A stretch of 28,943 bases of DNA, taken from the IMG/VR virus record IMGVR_UViG_3300043172_000799, positions 1-28,943 of that record. One strand, given 5' to 3'. The number at the start of each line of letters is the position of its first letter. The stretch's first letter is position 1. The DNA comes from a virus (lineage: Duplodnaviria > Heunggongvirae > Uroviricota > Caudoviricetes). The notes under the pieces were generated by a model. The model saw only the letters and a list, made by a program, of their open reading frames with translations. It made no database searches and had not been told where the DNA came from. This document shows, in pieces, positions 1-28,943 of this stretch. The translations under genes and the position numbers were made by a program.

Positions 1-9
1 CATTATTTG

Positions 10-438
10 TCAAGTACTTTTATCCAAAGTAATTTTTTCATAGCAATGTGGGCAGATTATAGTTTTTCCAACTACAATCATATCCTGTACTTCTACGATT
101 AGTCCATCCACACAAATATTGTATTGATCATCGTGATCCTCCCCCTGTACTTCTACTATTCCAATTAAACCAAATCTTGTAAATTTACTATTCATCAATG
201 CAATTACTAGTTCTATAGCATCTTGCAAATTATGTGTACCTTCAGAACCACTCCATCTAACTCCAGAGAAGTCTTTTAATATCTCTAAATCTATATATGT
301 TAAATCAGGAAATATATCTCCCCATTCAGGGTGTTCTCGGTAATCTTCTCTGAGAACAGTTTGGAGATAAGCCAGTTCACTAGCTTTTAATTCTCTTGTG
401 AATTTTAATTCCCCATAGTAGTCTATATTGTATCCCAT
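10..438 (-). CDS. hypothetical phage protein with C-terminal CPHC zinc-ribbon-like motif
   Basis: 142-aa ORF; AAGGAG Shine-Dalgarno upstream of the ATG; MGY..Y.G N-terminus of a type common in phage proteins. Confidence 0.8.
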   Translation of the reverse strand: MGYNIDYYGELKFTRELKASELAYLQTVLREDYREHPEWGDIFPDLTYIDLEILKDFSGVRWSGSEGTHNLQDAIELVIALMNSKFTRFGLIGIVEVQGEDHDDQYNICVDGLIVEVQDMIVVGKTIICPHCYEKITLDKST

Positions 439-482: not shown

Positions 483-608
483 TGGAGATGACGGCATCGA
501 AGCCGTGTCCGAACTACATGTACAAGATTTTAATCTACAGGAACTTTCGGTGCTAGTGCATTTACGTCATTCCTAATTACTATAATCCGTCGAAACCTTT
601 ACATCCCC
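483..608 (-). ncRNA. ssrA: miniature tmRNA (ssrA-like), 126 nt
   Basis: Minus strand begins GGGGATGTAAAGGTTTCGAC and ends GGACACGGCTTCGATGCCGTCATCTCCA. Acceptor stem GGGGAUG/CAUCUCC has the G3.U wobble and discriminator A. D-loop has no stem and ends GGUUUCGAC. P2a is GGAUUAUA/UGUAGUUC. T-arm is ACGGC-UUCGAU-GCCGU (6-nt loop). No full CCA tail is encoded after the discriminator. Confidence 0.85.
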
Positions 609-613
609 TAAAA

Positions 614-1152
614 ATCAGAGGGTCTATTTTAGATTGAACCCCCTGCTAAAGCAATCCTGACATGTTTTTAAAGTGGATTTTAAGTTCCCACTACTATGGA
701 TGCCATAGCACAGACAGAACATTATTTAATGTGCTTTCCATCCTTGTTCACACATGCCAAATATTTAACGTGGATTCAATGGCTTCCAGCAAGCAAGACT
801 ATTCTTTCCTCCCCTCCAAACTTTAACGTATTTACTCAGGGTCTTATACGAGTGAGCAGAACGTGCTTTTCTTCCAAACAGTAGCAGAGGTCATCCCGTA
901 GGATCGTCACTAGAACTGCGCAGTTCATTTACAGGGTTATGGTACAACGACCTAAAGATGGTTTAATGTTCCCTGACCACCTTTCCTTAATCCACAGCCA
1001 CACTCTGGGTGCCTACTCTTAGTAGCTTCCTCTCGACTAACTGTTTCATGTCTTAAAGCAATTGGCGTGGTATTCTCGACGCCCCGTTTTACTTCAGCAC
1101 AACATATGTGAATGTGCCCCAACTATCGACCACAGTTGGCTCTCGCTCTGAT
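614..1152 (-). ncRNA. large structured non-coding RNA (~540 nt), family unassigned; size and context like ROOL/GOLLD
   Basis: No credible ORF. Ends pair (AUCAGAG 1152-1146 with CUCUGAU 620-614). More than 10 local and long-range helices, G.U pairs favouring the minus strand, and a c(UACG)g tetraloop at 893-904. Confidence 0.75.
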
Positions 1153-3625: not shown

Positions 3626-3895
3626 TTATTTAACTCCTAAAATAACTACTTCGGCATCCAATATTACAATTGCATCTAAATCTGTTCTAGAGTGACACAG
3701 AGCTCCATTGGATAACACTATTGAGTATATTATATGCTTACCTTTGACCTCTTCTCTCGTAAATTCATAGTATTTTCTCCCCACTTCGTCTGGAATTCTA
3801 ATAAAGACTTCGTATATGTTACCTCTACTATGTGCCCAACAATCCCCTACATCTGGGATAATCTCTTTAATTGAGCTTTTATCTGTTATCTTCAT
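3626..3895 (-). CDS. hypothetical protein
   Basis: 89-aa ORF abutting the upstream stop. Confidence 0.75.
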   Translation of the reverse strand: MKITDKSSIKEIIPDVGDCWAHSRGNIYEVFIRIPDEVGRKYYEFTREEVKGKHIIYSIVLSNGALCHSRTDLDAIVILDAEVVILGVK

Positions 3896-7966: not shown

Positions 7967-8899
7967 TTAGTAAAGCTGGAGGTCCTTCTTCATATAGATT
8001 AATTCTTCTGGGTATTTTAGGAAGTACTCGTCTGGATCAAGTGCTTCATCAAACTCTAGTATCTCACAGTTCTTGCCTACAGATTCTAGTATTACTCCTG
8101 CTTCCCTAGCGTGTCTTTGTGCCTCACTCTCACCAGAATCAAAGAGGAAGAAGATATTTTCAAATCTATCTGCCAGCATGATAATTTGCTCCATCGTTAT
8201 CTCTGTTCCGTATGATCCAATAAAACCATCTCCGCACCTCCACACATCAGGGCCCCCACCCTCAACTACTACTACATTTTTTCCCTTGACATTGTCTATA
8301 CCATAAAATGAATTTTTGTGAGGTAGTACCTCCTTACTTCCCTCACAGGAAATATACCTTGGCTCTACTCCCTTTACGTACGAACGGGCTGTGTATGAGA
8401 TGTCCTTATTACGGAGTCTTATGGGTATAACAATACGATATGGTACACGTGACTCATACGTGGTTGATTTTAGATTATATTTGCTCCAGATGTATTTGGA
8501 ATCATAGCCTCTATCTTCCAAATATGTTTTAGCTGGTTTAATTAGCTTGGTTGTCCCTGGAATTTCTATTTTTAAAGGTCTGGTAGTTTCCAGCTCTTGA
8601 GTTCTTCCTCTGGAAAAACCCCCAGAATTATCTCCATATTTTTTGTATATTTTTTTAAGACCATCATAGTCTGTTACACCAGTTACAACCTTTACAAAGG
8701 AATAGAAATCATTGACATGACAAATGTAGCATGCAGTGGCAGTATAACTTCTAGATACAGCCATGTATGGTCTTCCATCGCCTGTAGCTCCACAGTGGAT
8801 ACATGTTTCAATTCCAGCATAGTCTTTTGTTAGGATGCTATGGTGATCTATGTATGGGAAATTGTAATCTTCCATCATCTGTATACTATCAAAATTCAA
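7967..8899 (-). CDS. DNA primase (zinc finger + Toprim, DnaG-like)
   Basis: CIHC...CYIC zinc finger, YLEDRG, RIVIP, AR...PRY, VVVEG..D, FLFD, DPDE. TTG start at 8899 follows AAGGAG; the ORF-track start at 9055 lies inside the upstream gene. Confidence 0.88.
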   Translation of the reverse strand: MNFDSIQMMEDYNFPYIDHHSILTKDYAGIETCIHCGATGDGRPYMAVSRSYTATACYICHVNDFYSFVKVVTGVTDYDGLKKIYKKYGDNSGGFSRGRTQELETTRPLKIEIPGTTKLIKPAKTYLEDRGYDSKYIWSKYNLKSTTYESRVPYRIVIPIRLRNKDISYTARSYVKGVEPRYISCEGSKEVLPHKNSFYGIDNVKGKNVVVVEGGGPDVWRCGDGFIGSYGTEITMEQIIMLADRFENIFFLFDSGESEAQRHAREAGVILESVGKNCEILEFDEALDPDEYFLKYPEELIYMKKDLQLY

Positions 8900-9596
8900 T
8901 GTGTTTCTCCTTTCTGCTACCTTTACTAAGATTATTTTGCCATAGCATTGGTTGTAAGTTAGTATAGTGGAAGCATTGCTTCTGCTGTTCTGTATCAGCC
9001 AGATCAAATGACGCACATGGATTGATATGATCCATGTGCCAACCATAAAAACCATAGTTATCCCATGTCATACCATCAATCCATAGACTTTCAAGGTATT
9101 CTCCCAATTCCGATGGAGAGCATCCTATCAAATCCATTGTACAGTGATACTTTTTGGCATTCTGATTTTTTAATGCTTTGGAAACTCTACTTCTAAGACT
9201 TTCTTCCAATCTAAATAGGGGATCATTTTTTCTTTTCTCCCTACGAGCGGTTCGTATTTTATCTTTATTTCCATTCCTATAATTTTTCTGGGTTTCTTTT
9301 CTTTTTTCTGGATTTTTCTTTCTATATTCTTTTGATCTTAATATTTCCATATTTTGATTTAAGTGATATAAATCTCTATTCTTACTTGCTATTTCTTCTC
9401 TATTTTTTTCTCGGTATTCTTTTTGTCGTTCTATTTCTTTATTTCTATTTAGTAGATAATTCCCATGACTGCACACCTTACATGTTGGTTTATGTCCTGA
9501 AGAAGAACTTTTATCTTTACCAAATTCCTCCCACTCCTTAAATTCACCACACCCACTACACTCTCTGCCAGTATCATTTATCAGGTACTTCCCCAT
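8889..9596 (-). CDS. HNH-type homing endonuclease with N-terminal zinc finger
   Basis: GRECSGC...CKVC, helical linker, then WHMDHINPCASFDL...CFHYTNLQPML...NLSKG. Confidence 0.85.
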   Translation of the reverse strand: MGKYLINDTGRECSGCGEFKEWEEFGKDKSSSSGHKPTCKVCSHGNYLLNRNKEIERQKEYREKNREEIASKNRDLYHLNQNMEILRSKEYRKKNPEKRKETQKNYRNGNKDKIRTARREKRKNDPLFRLEESLRSRVSKALKNQNAKKYHCTMDLIGCSPSELGEYLESLWIDGMTWDNYGFYGWHMDHINPCASFDLADTEQQKQCFHYTNLQPMLWQNNLSKGSRKEKHIEF

Positions 9597-9750
9597 TATC
9601 AAGCCTCCCTAGCCAGTAGGCATCTTTAATTAAATCTCCGATGACGAAGTTCAATCTGGAAAGTACTTCTGATCCTATCTCCAATGACTCTGCCATAAGA
9701 GATTCAATCCTTTCTATCTTCTTCTCTATTAAATATTCTGATGTTTTCAT
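9574..9750 (-). CDS. small hypothetical protein (58 aa, not in the ORF track)
   Basis: MKTSEYLIEKKIERIE...VPDK*; GGAGG RBS. Confidence 0.65.
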   Translation of the reverse strand: MKTSEYLIEKKIERIESLMAESLEIGSEVLSRLNFVIGDLIKDAYWLGRLDNGEVPDK

Positions 9751-17808: not shown

Positions 17809-18030
17809 ATGGTTGATGAGAAAGGAAGAATTTGCACTGTCTGTGATGTGTATAAATTATGGGAAGAATTTGGAATAGAGAAATATGTAAAGTCAGGACA
17901 CAGATCCAACTGTAAGGTCTGTGAAGCTAATAAGAAAGCTGAATATTACCAGAAGAATAAGGATGACATTAAGAAACAACATGCAGAATATTATTTAAAG
18001 TTGAAGGAGGCATATGGTGGAGAAATATAG
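17809..18030 (+). CDS. zinc-finger protein homologous to the HNH endonuclease N-terminal repeat (no nuclease domain)
   Basis: VDEKGRICTVC..YKLWEEF....SGH...CKVC; start placed at ATG 17809 after GAGGAG. Confidence 0.75.
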   Translation: MVDEKGRICTVCDVYKLWEEFGIEKYVKSGHRSNCKVCEANKKAEYYQKNKDDIKKQHAEYYLKLKEAYGGEI

Positions 18031-19090
18031 GATTGACGATAAGGGAAGAGAATGTTCTGGGTGCAAAGAGTATAAACTTTGGGAAGAATTTCATGATGCT
18101 AGACCACCAAAGTGTAAAATTTGTACAAGAAAAAGGGATACAGAGAGAAGTAGAGCTAATGGTGTGAAAGAGAAAGATAGATATATAGTAGATGGGGAAG
18201 GTAGGGAATGTACTATTTGTAGAAAATATAAAGAATGGGATGAGTTTGGTAGTAAAAAGCTTGGTGTAAGAGGATATAGTAATAAATGTAAAGTGTGTAC
18301 AAGAGAGCAGGACAATGATAGGAATCGAGCCAAAGGGATGAAGGAGAGAAAGAAATATAGGATTGATGATAAAGGAAGGGAATGCAGTAAGTGTGGGAAA
18401 TATAAGTTATGGGAAGAATTTAACGACTGCAAACCAACTGAATGTAAAGAATGTATTTCTAAAACCTACCAAGAGAATAAGGAAACAGTAGCAGAGCGTC
18501 ATAAAGAATATAGGAATAATCACACAGATAGTATACGGGAATATCAAGAAGTGTATAGAAAAAATAACAAGGAATTAATACAAGAAAATAGCAGGAAGTA
18601 CTATCAAGACAATATTGAGAATTTTAAAGAAAGTAATACAAAATATTATGCTGAAAATAAGGACAAAGTAATAGAAATAAATACAAAATATTATGCTGAA
18701 AATAAGGACAAAATGTTAGAAAAGAAGAATCAATATCAGAAAGAAAGACGTAAAAATGATCCAGAGTTTAAGATTCTGCTCAATACTCGTGGTAGAATTG
18801 GTATGGCTTTAAAAGCACAGAATGCATATAAGAACTTCAGAACGATAGATATTTTAGGTTGTTCTCCAGCAAAATATAGGAAGTACTTAGAGAATCAGTG
18901 GTATAATAACATGACATGGAAAACTAATACAAGAGATGGTTGGCAAGTACACCACACCATCCCAATATATATGTTTAATCTAACTGATCCAGAACAATAT
19001 ATGCAATGCTTTCACTACACTAATACTCAACCTTTATGGAAAGAAGACCATGAAGAAGCCCATAGATTACTACGAGCCATAACCAATTAA
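18014..19090 (+). CDS. HNH-type endonuclease with three N-terminal zinc-finger repeats
   Basis: Three copies of Y..D..GREC..C..YK.W.EF...CK.C; 15-aa helical repeats; WQVHHTIP...CFHYTNTQPLW...H...H. Confidence 0.85.
   Translation: MVEKYRIDDKGRECSGCKEYKLWEEFHDARPPKCKICTRKRDTERSRANGVKEKDRYIVDGEGRECTICRKYKEWDEFGSKKLGVRGYSNKCKVCTREQDNDRNRAKGMKERKKYRIDDKGRECSKCGKYKLWEEFNDCKPTECKECISKTYQENKETVAERHKEYRNNHTDSIREYQEVYRKNNKELIQENSRKYYQDNIENFKESNTKYYAENKDKVIEINTKYYAENKDKMLEKKNQYQKERRKNDPEFKILLNTRGRIGMALKAQNAYKNFRTIDILGCSPAKYRKYLENQWYNNMTWKTNTRDGWQVHHTIPIYMFNLTDPEQYMQCFHYTNTQPLWKEDHEEAHRLLRAITN
18635..18712 (+). repeat. 33-bp intragenic direct repeat, 45-nt period
   Basis: aatacaaaatattatgctgaaaataaggacaaa twice (NTKYYAENKDK). 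Confidence 0.9.
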
Positions 19091-25519: not shown

Positions 25520-25704
25520 ACTTCCTCCCCTGTTATTAAATTATAGTCCTTTTCATTCAGACATTGTGTATTAGGGCAAGACATAGTTTTATTATTATCT
25601 GCAAAAAGAACGTCCCTACAATCAGGACATACAAACCACTCATGATACCGGTGATCTGCATTCCATGCCTTTATTACTTGTTCACGTGTCAATGCTTTAG
25701 CCAT
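25516..25704 (-). CDS. small zinc-ribbon protein
   Basis: CPDC...CPN.QC; AAGGAG RBS. Confidence 0.75.
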   Translation of the reverse strand: MAKALTREQVIKAWNADHRYHEWFVCPDCRDVLFADNNKTMSCPNTQCLNEKDYNLITGEEV

Positions 25705-25718
25705 TTTATCTCCTTATT

Positions 25719-25901
25719 CTAAGTAGTTTCTTCATACTCTTTATTGAGTACCTTTCTTTCACTTCTAAGAGACTCCATAGTTTCATGTACACTTACTAAG
25801 TCACATGAAGTACTAAGCCTCTTATTATTCAAACTTCTAAGCTCATCACAAATCTCTTCCAGTCTACCTTCTATCTCATAAGCTCTATCTGATAATAACA
25901 T
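25719..25901 (-). CDS. small coiled-coil hypothetical protein
   Basis: 60 aa; TAATG overlap. Confidence 0.7.
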   Translation of the reverse strand: MLLSDRAYEIEGRLEEICDELRSLNNKRLSTSCDLVSVHETMESLRSERKVLNKEYEETT

Positions 25902-26077
25902 TACACTTCTCCTATGTTCTCTCTAAAGAATCTTGCAGAAGCACTAATGCCATAACCATATTGTTTCCCAATATACTTAATGGTTTTAGCCTTAGAATTT
26001 GTTGCATAATATTCTTCTACATTCTTTTTCATTTTAGTAAGTCTTTCCCTATACTGTCTTGCTCCTGTTAAATTCAT
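25901..26077 (-). CDS. hypothetical protein
   Basis: Start placed at ATG 26077 after GGAGG; the longer track start overlaps the promoter. Confidence 0.7.
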   Translation of the reverse strand: MNLTGARQYRERLTKMKKNVEEYYATNSKAKTIKYIGKQYGYGISASARFFRENIGEV

Positions 26078-26097
26078 TGTTTCCTCCGTATAATCTA

Positions 26098-26126
26098 AAT
26101 GTATCACATGATGGGAGGGTTGTCAA
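26098..26126 (-). promoter_or_regulatory. sigma70 promoter (leftward member of a divergent pair)
   Basis: TTGACA-accctcccatcatgtga-TACATT. Confidence 0.75.
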
Positions 26127-26257
26127 GAGGAAAATGAAAAGATTTCAAAGGAGGGGTGGCCTATACTATGGGTGAGTATAAGAAAAGGACCACCCCCTTC
26201 ATTTTAATTCCCAAGAAATTCAAGAAAGGCTTCCCTAATTATTTTAATTTTACCTAC

Positions 26258-26286
26258 TTGACAATAAACGACTTCCGTGTTATAAT
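26258..26286 (+). promoter_or_regulatory. consensus sigma70 promoter (rightward)
   Basis: TTGACA-17 nt-TATAAT with extended -10 TG. Confidence 0.9.
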
Positions 26287-26312
26287 GTCTTAAGAACAGA
26301 ATTAAAAAGGAA

Positions 26313-26871: not shown

Positions 26872-27837
26872 ATGAAGAGAATATGTATCCGTTGTAATAT
26901 AGAAAAAGAAGAGAGTGAGTTTTATAGAGAACGTAAAGTCTGCTTAATATGCACTAAGATACAAAGGGACAATCGTAGTAAGAAAAGGGTAGATTATTAC
27001 AATGCCAACAAAGATTTTATTTTGAAAAATCATAAAATAACAAAAAAAGTATGTAGTGGATGTAAGGAGGAAAAATTTCTTTCTGAGTTTTGGCTGGCTA
27101 ATAACACTAAGGACTATACTACAGCTAAATGTGCTGTATGCACTAAAAAGTACTCTTGGTCTTATTCCCAAAATGAACTAAGACCTAATAAAATCAGAGA
27201 CGAAATTTTACAAAAACAAGAAGATGATGGTATTCTCAAGTATTGCCCTAATTGTGAGACTGAAAAGTCTATATGTAAATTTAGAGTGTCAGGTAGAGAA
27301 GGAGGGTACTATGATTTTAGAACCCCTCTTTGCATTGAATGTGGAGATATTACTAAAAAAGAACTAGCACATGAAAAATACATGGAGAATCAACAATACA
27401 ATATTAATAAAAGTAAAGCTTATAATAAAAAGAAGTATCACGAAGATAAGCAATACAAAATACTGTCCAATTTACGCTCCAGATTACACACCGCAGTTAC
27501 TAATGAGGGACACAACAAATATGGCAGTACTATGGGTTTAGTTGGTTGTAGTGGGGAAGATCTGGTGTTTCATTTAGAAAACCAGTTCACGGAAAGAATG
27601 TCTTGGGATAACCATACTACCAATGGTTGGCATATAGACCATATAATCCCTTGTAATTACTTTGACTTATCCAAAGAAGAGAACCAGAGAATCTGTTTTC
27701 ATTATTTGAATTTACAACCTCTTTGGTGGAATGATAATCTTTCAAAAAAGAAGAACCATATTCCAGATAATATAGAAGAGATTGTACTTAGTATTAAAGA
27801 AGAATTGGGATGGGAAGTCTCTACTACAGTACAGTAG
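26872..27837 (+). CDS. HNH-type homing endonuclease with three zinc-finger repeats
   Basis: Three CxxC...EK....F...CxxC repeats; WHIDHIIPC.YFDL...QR.CFHYLNLQPLW..DNLSK. Confidence 0.87.
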   Translation: MKRICIRCNIEKEESEFYRERKVCLICTKIQRDNRSKKRVDYYNANKDFILKNHKITKKVCSGCKEEKFLSEFWLANNTKDYTTAKCAVCTKKYSWSYSQNELRPNKIRDEILQKQEDDGILKYCPNCETEKSICKFRVSGREGGYYDFRTPLCIECGDITKKELAHEKYMENQQYNINKSKAYNKKKYHEDKQYKILSNLRSRLHTAVTNEGHNKYGSTMGLVGCSGEDLVFHLENQFTERMSWDNHTTNGWHIDHIIPCNYFDLSKEENQRICFHYLNLQPLWWNDNLSKKKNHIPDNIEEIVLSIKEELGWEVSTTVQ

Positions 27838-28152
27838 ATTTTATATAATAATCTTTTTTCATTTCTAATTTTCCACTCTAATTTACAGCTTTTGCCTCCA
27901 AAACTATTTAAGAAGTGATACGTGGAGAGAATAGGCGTTGGGAGGCTGAAATGTACGATTTTGGACCCCCCAAACTATATGAGCCGGACTATTTTCAGCC
28001 AGCTTTTTCTTAGTTCAGCCTACCTAAATTTATTAGTCTATCCTAACTTAGCCTAGCCTAAGTCTGAATTTTATTTTAAGCATGTCCCCTTCACCCCCTA
28101 CAATTAATATAGTTAACATTTCCCTTTTCAGGATTTAATTTCCTTATACTGT

Positions 28153-28182
28153 ATATTATCACGATTAAAATAATACTGTCAA
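28153..28182 (-). promoter_or_regulatory. sigma70 promoter
   Basis: TTGACA-18 nt-TAATAT with extended -10 TG. Confidence 0.6.
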
Positions 28183-28208
28183 TAGTTTTTTATTTTATTT
28201 GTAGAAAT

Positions 28209-28234
28209 AAAAAAGGAAGCACAACTGTACTTCC
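28209..28234 (-). terminator. intrinsic terminator
   Basis: GGAAGTAC-AGTT-GTGCTTCC followed by TTTTTT, downstream of the 28244 stop. Confidence 0.75.
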
Positions 28235-28243
28235 CTGGTAAGA

Positions 28244-28490
28244 TCAAAAATAATTCCAATAGAAATTATTAACCGCTATATTCAAATTGAATAATCTAAA
28301 AAAGTTAAATATCCTTTTTCCGGTATTGTACTTTTTTAAAGCTTCTTTCTTACTGCTATACTCATGTTTTTTCATATAGATATCAATAGATACATTTTGA
28401 AATTCTATATATGCAGCATGTAAAGCGAGCATATTCTCTATGCTATTTTTAATATAAAAACCGTAGTAATACTTTAATGATTTTTTTCAT
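28244..28490 (-). pseudogene. small gene frameshifted in an A7 run
   Basis: AAGGAG RBS and ATG at 28490; removing one A from the A7 run gives MKKSLKYYYGFYIKNSIEN in frame with the 28244-28432 ORF. Confidence 0.55.
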
Positions 28491-28659
28491 AATTCTCCTT
28501 ATACAGAAATCCCCCTATATAATCATAGGGGAATTTTTTATTTCTTCTTTCTTAGTATCAAAATTTCTGCCTGTAGTTTTGTATTAGATTGAAATAACTG
28601 ACTGTTTCCTATTACTGCTCCAATTACATAACCTAGTGTAAAACCTAATAGAGCACCGA

Positions 28660-28842
28660 TTAAATAGTTGATAGATTAACCTCCTGTATATTTCTTTTAA
28701 AGTTACTTTCTTTTTTATATCCTTTTTTAACTATTTTTTCTACTCTGTTGAATTTTGTTAAATTTCGTTTCTTTTCAAAACTTGTCATTTTTTCAGCTTC
28801 ATTAATTGTAATTGTCATTTTCTGTACTTCCTTATAGAACAT
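28660..28842 (-). CDS. small basic hypothetical protein
   Basis: 60-aa ORF; the true start is probably the internal ATG (MTITINE) after AAGGA. Confidence 0.55.
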   Translation of the reverse strand: MFYKEVQKMTITINEAEKMTSFEKKRNLTKFNRVEKIVKKGYKKESNFKRNIQEVNLSTI

Positions 28843-28943
28843 ATTTTAAGCAATTAATTGCTTATCAATCCATACTAACAATTATTAATATGGATCAATC
28901 AACAATTAATTTTTAGGCACTATACAAAAAATTGTTTTTCATT

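Follow-up and report, generated by a model that had tools for sequence, protein, structure and literature searches.

The window analysed here covers the initial 28.9 kb of a contig that measures 168,384 bp and has a GC content of 34%, and the run that holds this contig is a marine sediment metagenome. Genes for terminase, portal, capsid, DNA polymerase and ribonucleotide reductase are present in the contig, and its source was therefore taken to be a tailed phage. The contig ends overlap, and another assembly reads across the circular join. Close to the start of the window, a short tmRNA-like gene (here the mini-tmRNA) lies immediately downstream of a GC-rich noncoding block (Table 1). Across both elements the sequence is contiguous and agrees letter for letter between two JGI assemblies, and one near-identical Logan contig covers the whole stretch; all of these may derive from the same site or sample. 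On these grounds an assembly artefact was ruled out.

Table 1. Features at the locus and in its surroundings (window positions).
Feature	Position	Strand	Basis or remark
Hypothetical protein, 142 aa	10–438	minus	downstream of mini-tmRNA
Mini-tmRNA, 126 nt, G1 608 to discriminator A483	483–608	minus	Rfam RF00023 match, anatomy, covariation
T arm, 5-bp stem closed by C-G, 6-nt loop	491–506	minus	anatomy
Inner helix 575–569:544–538 closing 24-nt A-rich loop	538–575	minus	pairing kept in relatives
Acceptor stem, 7 bp, G3.U alanine determinant	608–602 paired with 490–484	minus	anatomy
5-nt spacer, predicted RNase P site 609/608	609–613	minus	sequence; tmRNA processing (PMC3985003)
GC-rich noncoding block, candidate large structured RNA	614–1152	minus	composition, stops, codon score
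Local 9-bp hairpin 645–637:624–616, then A and five U	616–645	minus	pairing probability 0.62–0.97
ORF, 46 aa	1185–1325	minus	upstream of block; called in JGI assembly; singleton cluster
Tyrosine recombinase gene	1409–2344	minus	PHROG 1, E 4e-20
Four tRNA genes (Trp, Leu, Gln, Met)	~1.3 kb downstream of the locus, across the circular join	same strand	

The phage has few close relatives. The flanking proteins that were looked up fell into clusters of one. The nearest syntenic contig (G006) ends some 20 kb before reaching the locus, the contigs holding homologs of the flanking proteins were short or non-syntenic, and scans with the integrase and the portal protein found no relatives. An smpB gene was not found in the phage. 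A second large contig of the same sample, a 150,916-base contig from the run X1, has the T-arm sequence (window 492–513) and a promoter motif (window 5–23) in common with the window. Related endonuclease VII/HNH-like genes, some of them inverted, occur at 8889–9602, 18014–19090 and 26872–27837 of the window and in more copies elsewhere in the genome, which suggests mobile homing endonucleases.

Anatomy and relatives of the mini-tmRNA

The original prediction had placed G1 of a tmRNA-like unit at 608, and this assignment was confirmed, on the minus strand, by an Rfam tmRNA (RF00023) match at 608–480 with 52.9 bits (E 2.5e-18; gathering cut-off 47) and by the presence of a 7-bp acceptor stem, a D loop, P2a and a T stem. 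Of a tmRNA the molecule retains the tRNA-like domain and helix 2, with a loop of 24 nt; the D loop is 13 nt long and stemless, P2a has 8 bp and CCA is not encoded. The G3.U pair is invariant in the alignment (10/10 sequences), and the 6-nt T loop, the usual one minus one base, is common to the relatives L016, L032, L035 and L036. The interior measures only 78 nt, and the inner helix with its loop occupies the place of the pseudoknot ring and the tag region, so that no pseudoknot ring around a tag reading frame was found. A GCA resembling a resume codon stands at 559–557 inside the loop, and the frame starting there encodes ALAPKVPVD and reaches a stop after 9 codons, a conserved tag with a hydrophobic degron and stop being absent. 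A complete one-piece tRNA-like domain with a short interior in a phage genome is what defines a TLD-only molecule, and all these features are found here. ARAGORN missed the mini-tmRNA, as it did every tag-less tmRNA tested in this analysis. Tag-less tmRNAs are on record from a single phage, DS6A, and from a small number of organelles. A permuted two-piece tmRNA (RF04321) was rejected because G1 precedes the T arm and the window holds no RF04321 match.

Relatives were looked for in viral and metagenome contigs with a pattern derived solely from the two ends. Ten distinct relatives of 110–140 nt were obtained from other phage or metagenome contigs, a count that takes in one copy from a 484-kb GenBank phage, together with several more of about 80 nt. 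In the 10-sequence alignment 94.7% of the cells pair and 9 of the 15 pairs change on both sides, compared with 42–61% pairing in slid-partner controls. The closest relative, L016, has the short T loop and a 19-base interior stretch in common with the mini-tmRNA; its inner helix differs in sequence with the pairing intact, and the same was observed in six other relatives. Altogether, an inner helix of 4–8 bp and variable sequence was located in eight members chosen on their ends only; these helices were placed by best-fit search and the short ones are weak individually. The loops of these eight members are 17–26 nt long and contain an A-rich run that leads into GCA or GCC. Four of the eight have no in-frame stop inside the RNA, and their tag peptides differ, being conserved only over the first one to four residues. 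The compensatory changes, together with the unconserved tag frame, therefore point to a conserved gene that is neither decaying nor a normal tagging tmRNA. A decayed tmRNA pseudogene was ruled out by the covariation, and an attP fragment of a host tmRNA was rejected because the molecule has its two ends and a derived T loop. A model built from the 110–140-nt subfamily scores the DS6A molecule at 46.6 bits; a GTDB scan for the subfamily gave chance matches only, and a model search of 47 capsid-related records gave no match.

Additional tmRNA-like elements were noted during the survey. An unannotated 113-nt member of the subfamily is carried by the 484-kb uncultured phage LR756508 (L190:819–931). 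Two mini-tmRNA variants of about 80 nt (L015:5802–5886 and L034:4137–4220) have a changed D-loop motif and are preceded by a hairpin with a second tmRNA-like 5' motif, a similar hairpin lying upstream of L028. The mini-tmRNA at L036:3314–3450 has its own consensus promoter and a possibly structured leader of about 110 nt. The phages Xoo-sp13 and Tunturi_5 (L191:852–931 and L192:859–933) contain unannotated tmRNA-like 3' ends in long noncoding regions, with atypical 5' parts. Moreover, a full-length tmRNA, a skipping-rope RNA and extra tRNAs, all unannotated in GenBank, were observed in Lactococcus phage AM1 (L001:3005–3353 and 3671–3749), and the same unannotated RNAs occur in WRP3 (L002).

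The noncoding block upstream

The block contains 8–14 stops in every frame and lacks codon-position bias, its codon score is below that of every coding window, and no gene was called there in another assembly; the stops, the codon score and the lack of positional bias rule out a coding sequence. Its GC content of 43.6% places it in the top 0.12% of equal-length windows of the genome. The other intergenic gaps have 22–38% GC, with the spacer between tRNAs (42%) as the sole exception, and the block is thus GC-rich in the way of the mini-tmRNA and RNA genes. It is mainly this composition, unlike that of ordinary gaps, that makes the block a candidate RNA gene. It had been described as the only long ORF-free, GC-richer block of the window; it is indeed the only GC-rich one, while the segments 25574–26312 and 27837–28912 are also ORF-free. 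The exceptional spacer, between tRNA-Trp and tRNA-Leu, is an ORF-free block of about 480 nt with 42% GC (G000:167170–167650; L013:7180–7650, minus strand); it has no Rfam match, is unlike the block at 614–1152 and had no match in the fetched loci, and it is another candidate RNA.

At the 5' edge (1184–1123, minus strand), a −10 box at 1184–1179 without a −35 box is followed by a strong Shine-Dalgarno sequence at 1171–1165 and a TTG-started 11-codon ORF at 1158–1123 that overlaps the block. To judge from the sequence, the Shine-Dalgarno and the ORF may specify a leader peptide, or else mark a gene start that was interrupted.

No known family accounted for the block. The search against Rfam gave no credible match even at E 10. 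For ROOL (RF03087) the covariance model found no match at E 10 in the genome, a search in which the control genomes held no positive; likewise the model of the conserved 3' domain of GOLLD (RF02032) found none at E 10, and the OLE model (RF01071) had no match in the genome, with no positive control responding. The group I intron model (RF00028) gave no match, with an S-like segment near 805–798 lacking its R strand, and the RNase P RNA model (RF00010) gave none either, the P4 pseudoknot not being found. A purine run near 817–804 recalls what we take to be conserved region I of RNase P RNA, with the P4 partner absent. A group II intron reading was rejected, as was a MITE, since the block has just 7-bp inverted ends and is present in a single copy. 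Homologs were absent from a blastn search of phages, plasmids and E. coli genomes (sequence searches miss remote RNA homology), from the records with other mini-tmRNAs and from 25 records found via the capsid protein, which were mostly fragments, and the RaK2 intergenic regions showed no similarity in what is a weak test. The one trace came from a second sediment run, X2, in which two contigs of depth 2 resemble the block to about 96% over 622–819; of the variants in these depth-2 contigs, two fit candidate helices and two break pairs unless unseen partners changed.

The block had also been proposed to be an ornate RNA closed by a helix between 1152–1146 and 620–614, and this was not sustained by the folding analysis. 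The 7-bp complementarity exists, with a similar end helix arising in 4–11% of shuffles, and its pairing probability is 0.0. Its bases are taken by the local hairpin at 645–616 (−12.7 kcal/mol, z −1.25), the two being mutually exclusive, and this hairpin is the predicted 3' element of the block. Since partition-function models are poor on long pseudoknotted RNAs, the closing helix is unproven by them and could still form. A nested chain of 6–11-bp long-range helices can be drawn in the block; the best such chain has p = 0.32, the helix counts lie within chance (p about 0.1–0.2) and all the helix, hairpin and chain tests gave p values of 0.085–0.65. The minus strand has a perfect 14-base palindrome at 926–913, through which the molecule could dimerise with itself if the block RNA is real, and a UNCG-capped hairpin at 908–897.

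We consider it reasonably probable that the block is a structured RNA, in which case it would probably belong to an uncatalogued family. An unlikely alternative is that the block is not one structured RNA and that the mini-tmRNA is the sole gene. The block would then be a noncoding insertion of foreign or decayed sequence, or else a row of separate small elements, namely a leader with the 11-codon ORF, hairpins and a terminator-like hairpin. Such an origin is consistent with the minimum free energy of the block, which does not differ from that of shuffles (z −0.06; no sub-window below z −1.8), with the lack of a family match and of a homolog in the searches run, and with the resemblance of the 5' edge to an interrupted gene start. 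The GC content, well above that of ordinary gaps, and the absence of traces of codon structure argue against it, and large pseudoknotted RNAs are often inconspicuous in minimum free energy tests.

Probable shared transcription and proposed action

The predicted 5-nt spacing was found to be exact, with five bases (613–609) between 614 and G1. A consensus phage promoter (TTGACA, 16–18 nt, TATAAT, at most one mismatch) occurs 25 times in the genome and nowhere between 608 and 2394; the nearest full one, with its −35 box at 2395, precedes the tyrosine recombinase gene, and the weak promoter sites inside the block are at chance level. Therefore, transcription probably reaches the mini-tmRNA through the block, starting at either the lone −10 box or the promoter at 2395. 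The 5' end of tmRNAs is cut by RNase P (PMC3985003), and a cut at 609/608, which is likely here, would also form the 3' end of the RNA upstream. Such a cut is ordinary tRNA-type processing and holds for anything that stands before a tRNA-like gene. The block would be read on the same transcript, its 3' end being produced by the RNase P cut and/or by the local hairpin. The origin of both elements in one precursor, as originally predicted, is thus likely, given the promoter-free stretch, while the dedicated system attached to it was not supported, since the mini-tmRNA occurs without the block in its relatives.

On balance, and with moderate confidence, the locus is read as a stable-RNA region with two neighbouring, independent items, a functional mini-tmRNA of the DS6A kind and an upstream noncoding block. 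In the mechanism that we propose, host RNase P would cut the mini-tmRNA from a longer transcript at G1, after which it would be trimmed, given CCA, charged with alanine and bound by SmpB, the partner being that of the host because the phage lacks smpB. Trans-translation in the host would then be disturbed, either through the titration of SmpB or through the capture of stalled peptides without a degradation tag. The mini-tmRNA probably serves as a decoy for SmpB or rescues ribosomes without attaching a degradation tag, and the closed 24-nt loop is probably too small to serve as a message. Speculatively, the resume-like loop may offer a second contact for SmpB. Some observations count against this two-item reading: the retention of the resume-like loop hints at a role beyond that of a bare SmpB decoy, the hairpin with its U run before G1 could end many of the transcripts, and no single-sequence test places the structure of the block above chance.

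The same loop underlies a quite improbable alternative in which the mini-tmRNA is a working minimal tmRNA. The inner helix would melt after alanine transfer and translation would resume at GCA 559; the added ALAPKVPVD, having no hydrophobic degron, would leave the ribosomes freed and the proteins spared. The A-rich-then-GCN context is kept in eight relatives, and the stop after 9 codons is in frame here. The resume point of tmRNA is set by the −6 to +1 context, and three of its four pseudoknots are dispensable in vitro (PMC3985003), both of which favour such a molecule. Half of the eight members, in contrast, have no in-frame stop, their peptides are not conserved past the first few residues, and a loop of just 17–26 nt argues against this activity.

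The dedicated two-RNA system of the original prediction, in which the block is a large ornate RNA that uses the mini-tmRNA as a mascRNA-like signal and/or acts jointly with it on ribosomes in replacement of the pseudoknot ring, is very unlikely. The 5-nt spacing and probable co-transcription, the 7-bp complementarity of the ends with the long-range helices that can be drawn, and the GC content of the block speak for it. Against it, the mini-tmRNA stands without the block in all ten 110–140-nt relatives, and nothing matching the block occurs anywhere in the complete 146.6-kb genome that carries the closest mini-tmRNA; the relatives are preceded by ORFs, by a tRNA or by a promoter and short leader, none of which resembles the block. 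The end helix is within reach of chance and has a predicted pairing near zero, and the nested chain too lies within chance. Moreover, the small inner loop is kept in relatives that have no large neighbouring RNA, and there is no support for the block as a stand-in for the ring. Equally slim is the chance that a new structured phage RNA of about 540 nt and the mini-tmRNA form a recurring module, in which RNase P would mature the large RNA and both would act on host ribosomes or SmpB. Separately, L032:1950–2584 includes some 500 nt with no ORF on the same strand, ahead of a tRNA-Thr and a mini-tmRNA that open an array of 26 tRNAs; this is a possible large RNA with no similarity to the block.

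In the reading as two independent items, the locus defines a longer, 110–140-nt subfamily of tag-less tmRNAs with a resume-codon-like loop on a covarying helix. With this subfamily it can be tested directly whether the ribosome rescue and protein tagging of the host are blocked, or rewired, by phages. The block, if it is a folded RNA, would add to the large phage RNAs that are not yet catalogued. If the two did work as partners, this would be a new RNA system, one that the current evidence does not support.

Comparison with known systems

The arrangement resembles MALAT1/mascRNA in that a tRNA-like element lies just 3' of a longer RNA and that an RNase P cut would set the upstream 3' end. This is an analogy with a eukaryotic system only: the element here derives from a tmRNA and is found on its own elsewhere, and the linkage is not conserved. 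The block is like ROOL and GOLLD in its size range and in its phage location near tRNA genes, these RNAs being commonly found near tRNA islands (PMC12286853), a likeness by context only. It differs from them in that it matches neither model and is without covariation support.

The mini-tmRNA agrees with the standard one-piece tmRNA (RF00023, for example the copy of phage AM1) at both ends, in the D loop and in P2, and its first 22 bases are identical to those of ten full-length tmRNAs in viral contigs. From the D loop to the GGAC linker it has 78 nt, compared with roughly 300 in the standard tmRNA, and unlike the latter it has neither pseudoknots nor a conserved tag or degron. A 2025 database lists nine standard-form tmRNA sequences without the coding part (PMC11915505).

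The closest parallel is the mycobacteriophage DS6A, which has a "TLD only" tmRNA (PMC4131195). A similar molecule strongly inhibits tmRNA, perhaps via SmpB titration (PMC4131195; inhibition also in PMC11915505). Both the DS6A tmRNA (JN698994:28478–28561) and the mini-tmRNA are phage-borne and of standard orientation, with an intact tRNA-like domain, the G3.U pair and no pseudoknot ring. The mini-tmRNA is longer, at 126 nt versus about 80 nt, and differs in its longer helix 2 with an inner helix, its 24-nt resume-like loop, an extra small hairpin, the 6-nt T loop closed by C-G and the lack of an encoded CCA. Judged by these sequence features, the mini-tmRNA belongs to the already known DS6A type of tag-less tmRNA and represents a new variant of it, of greater length.
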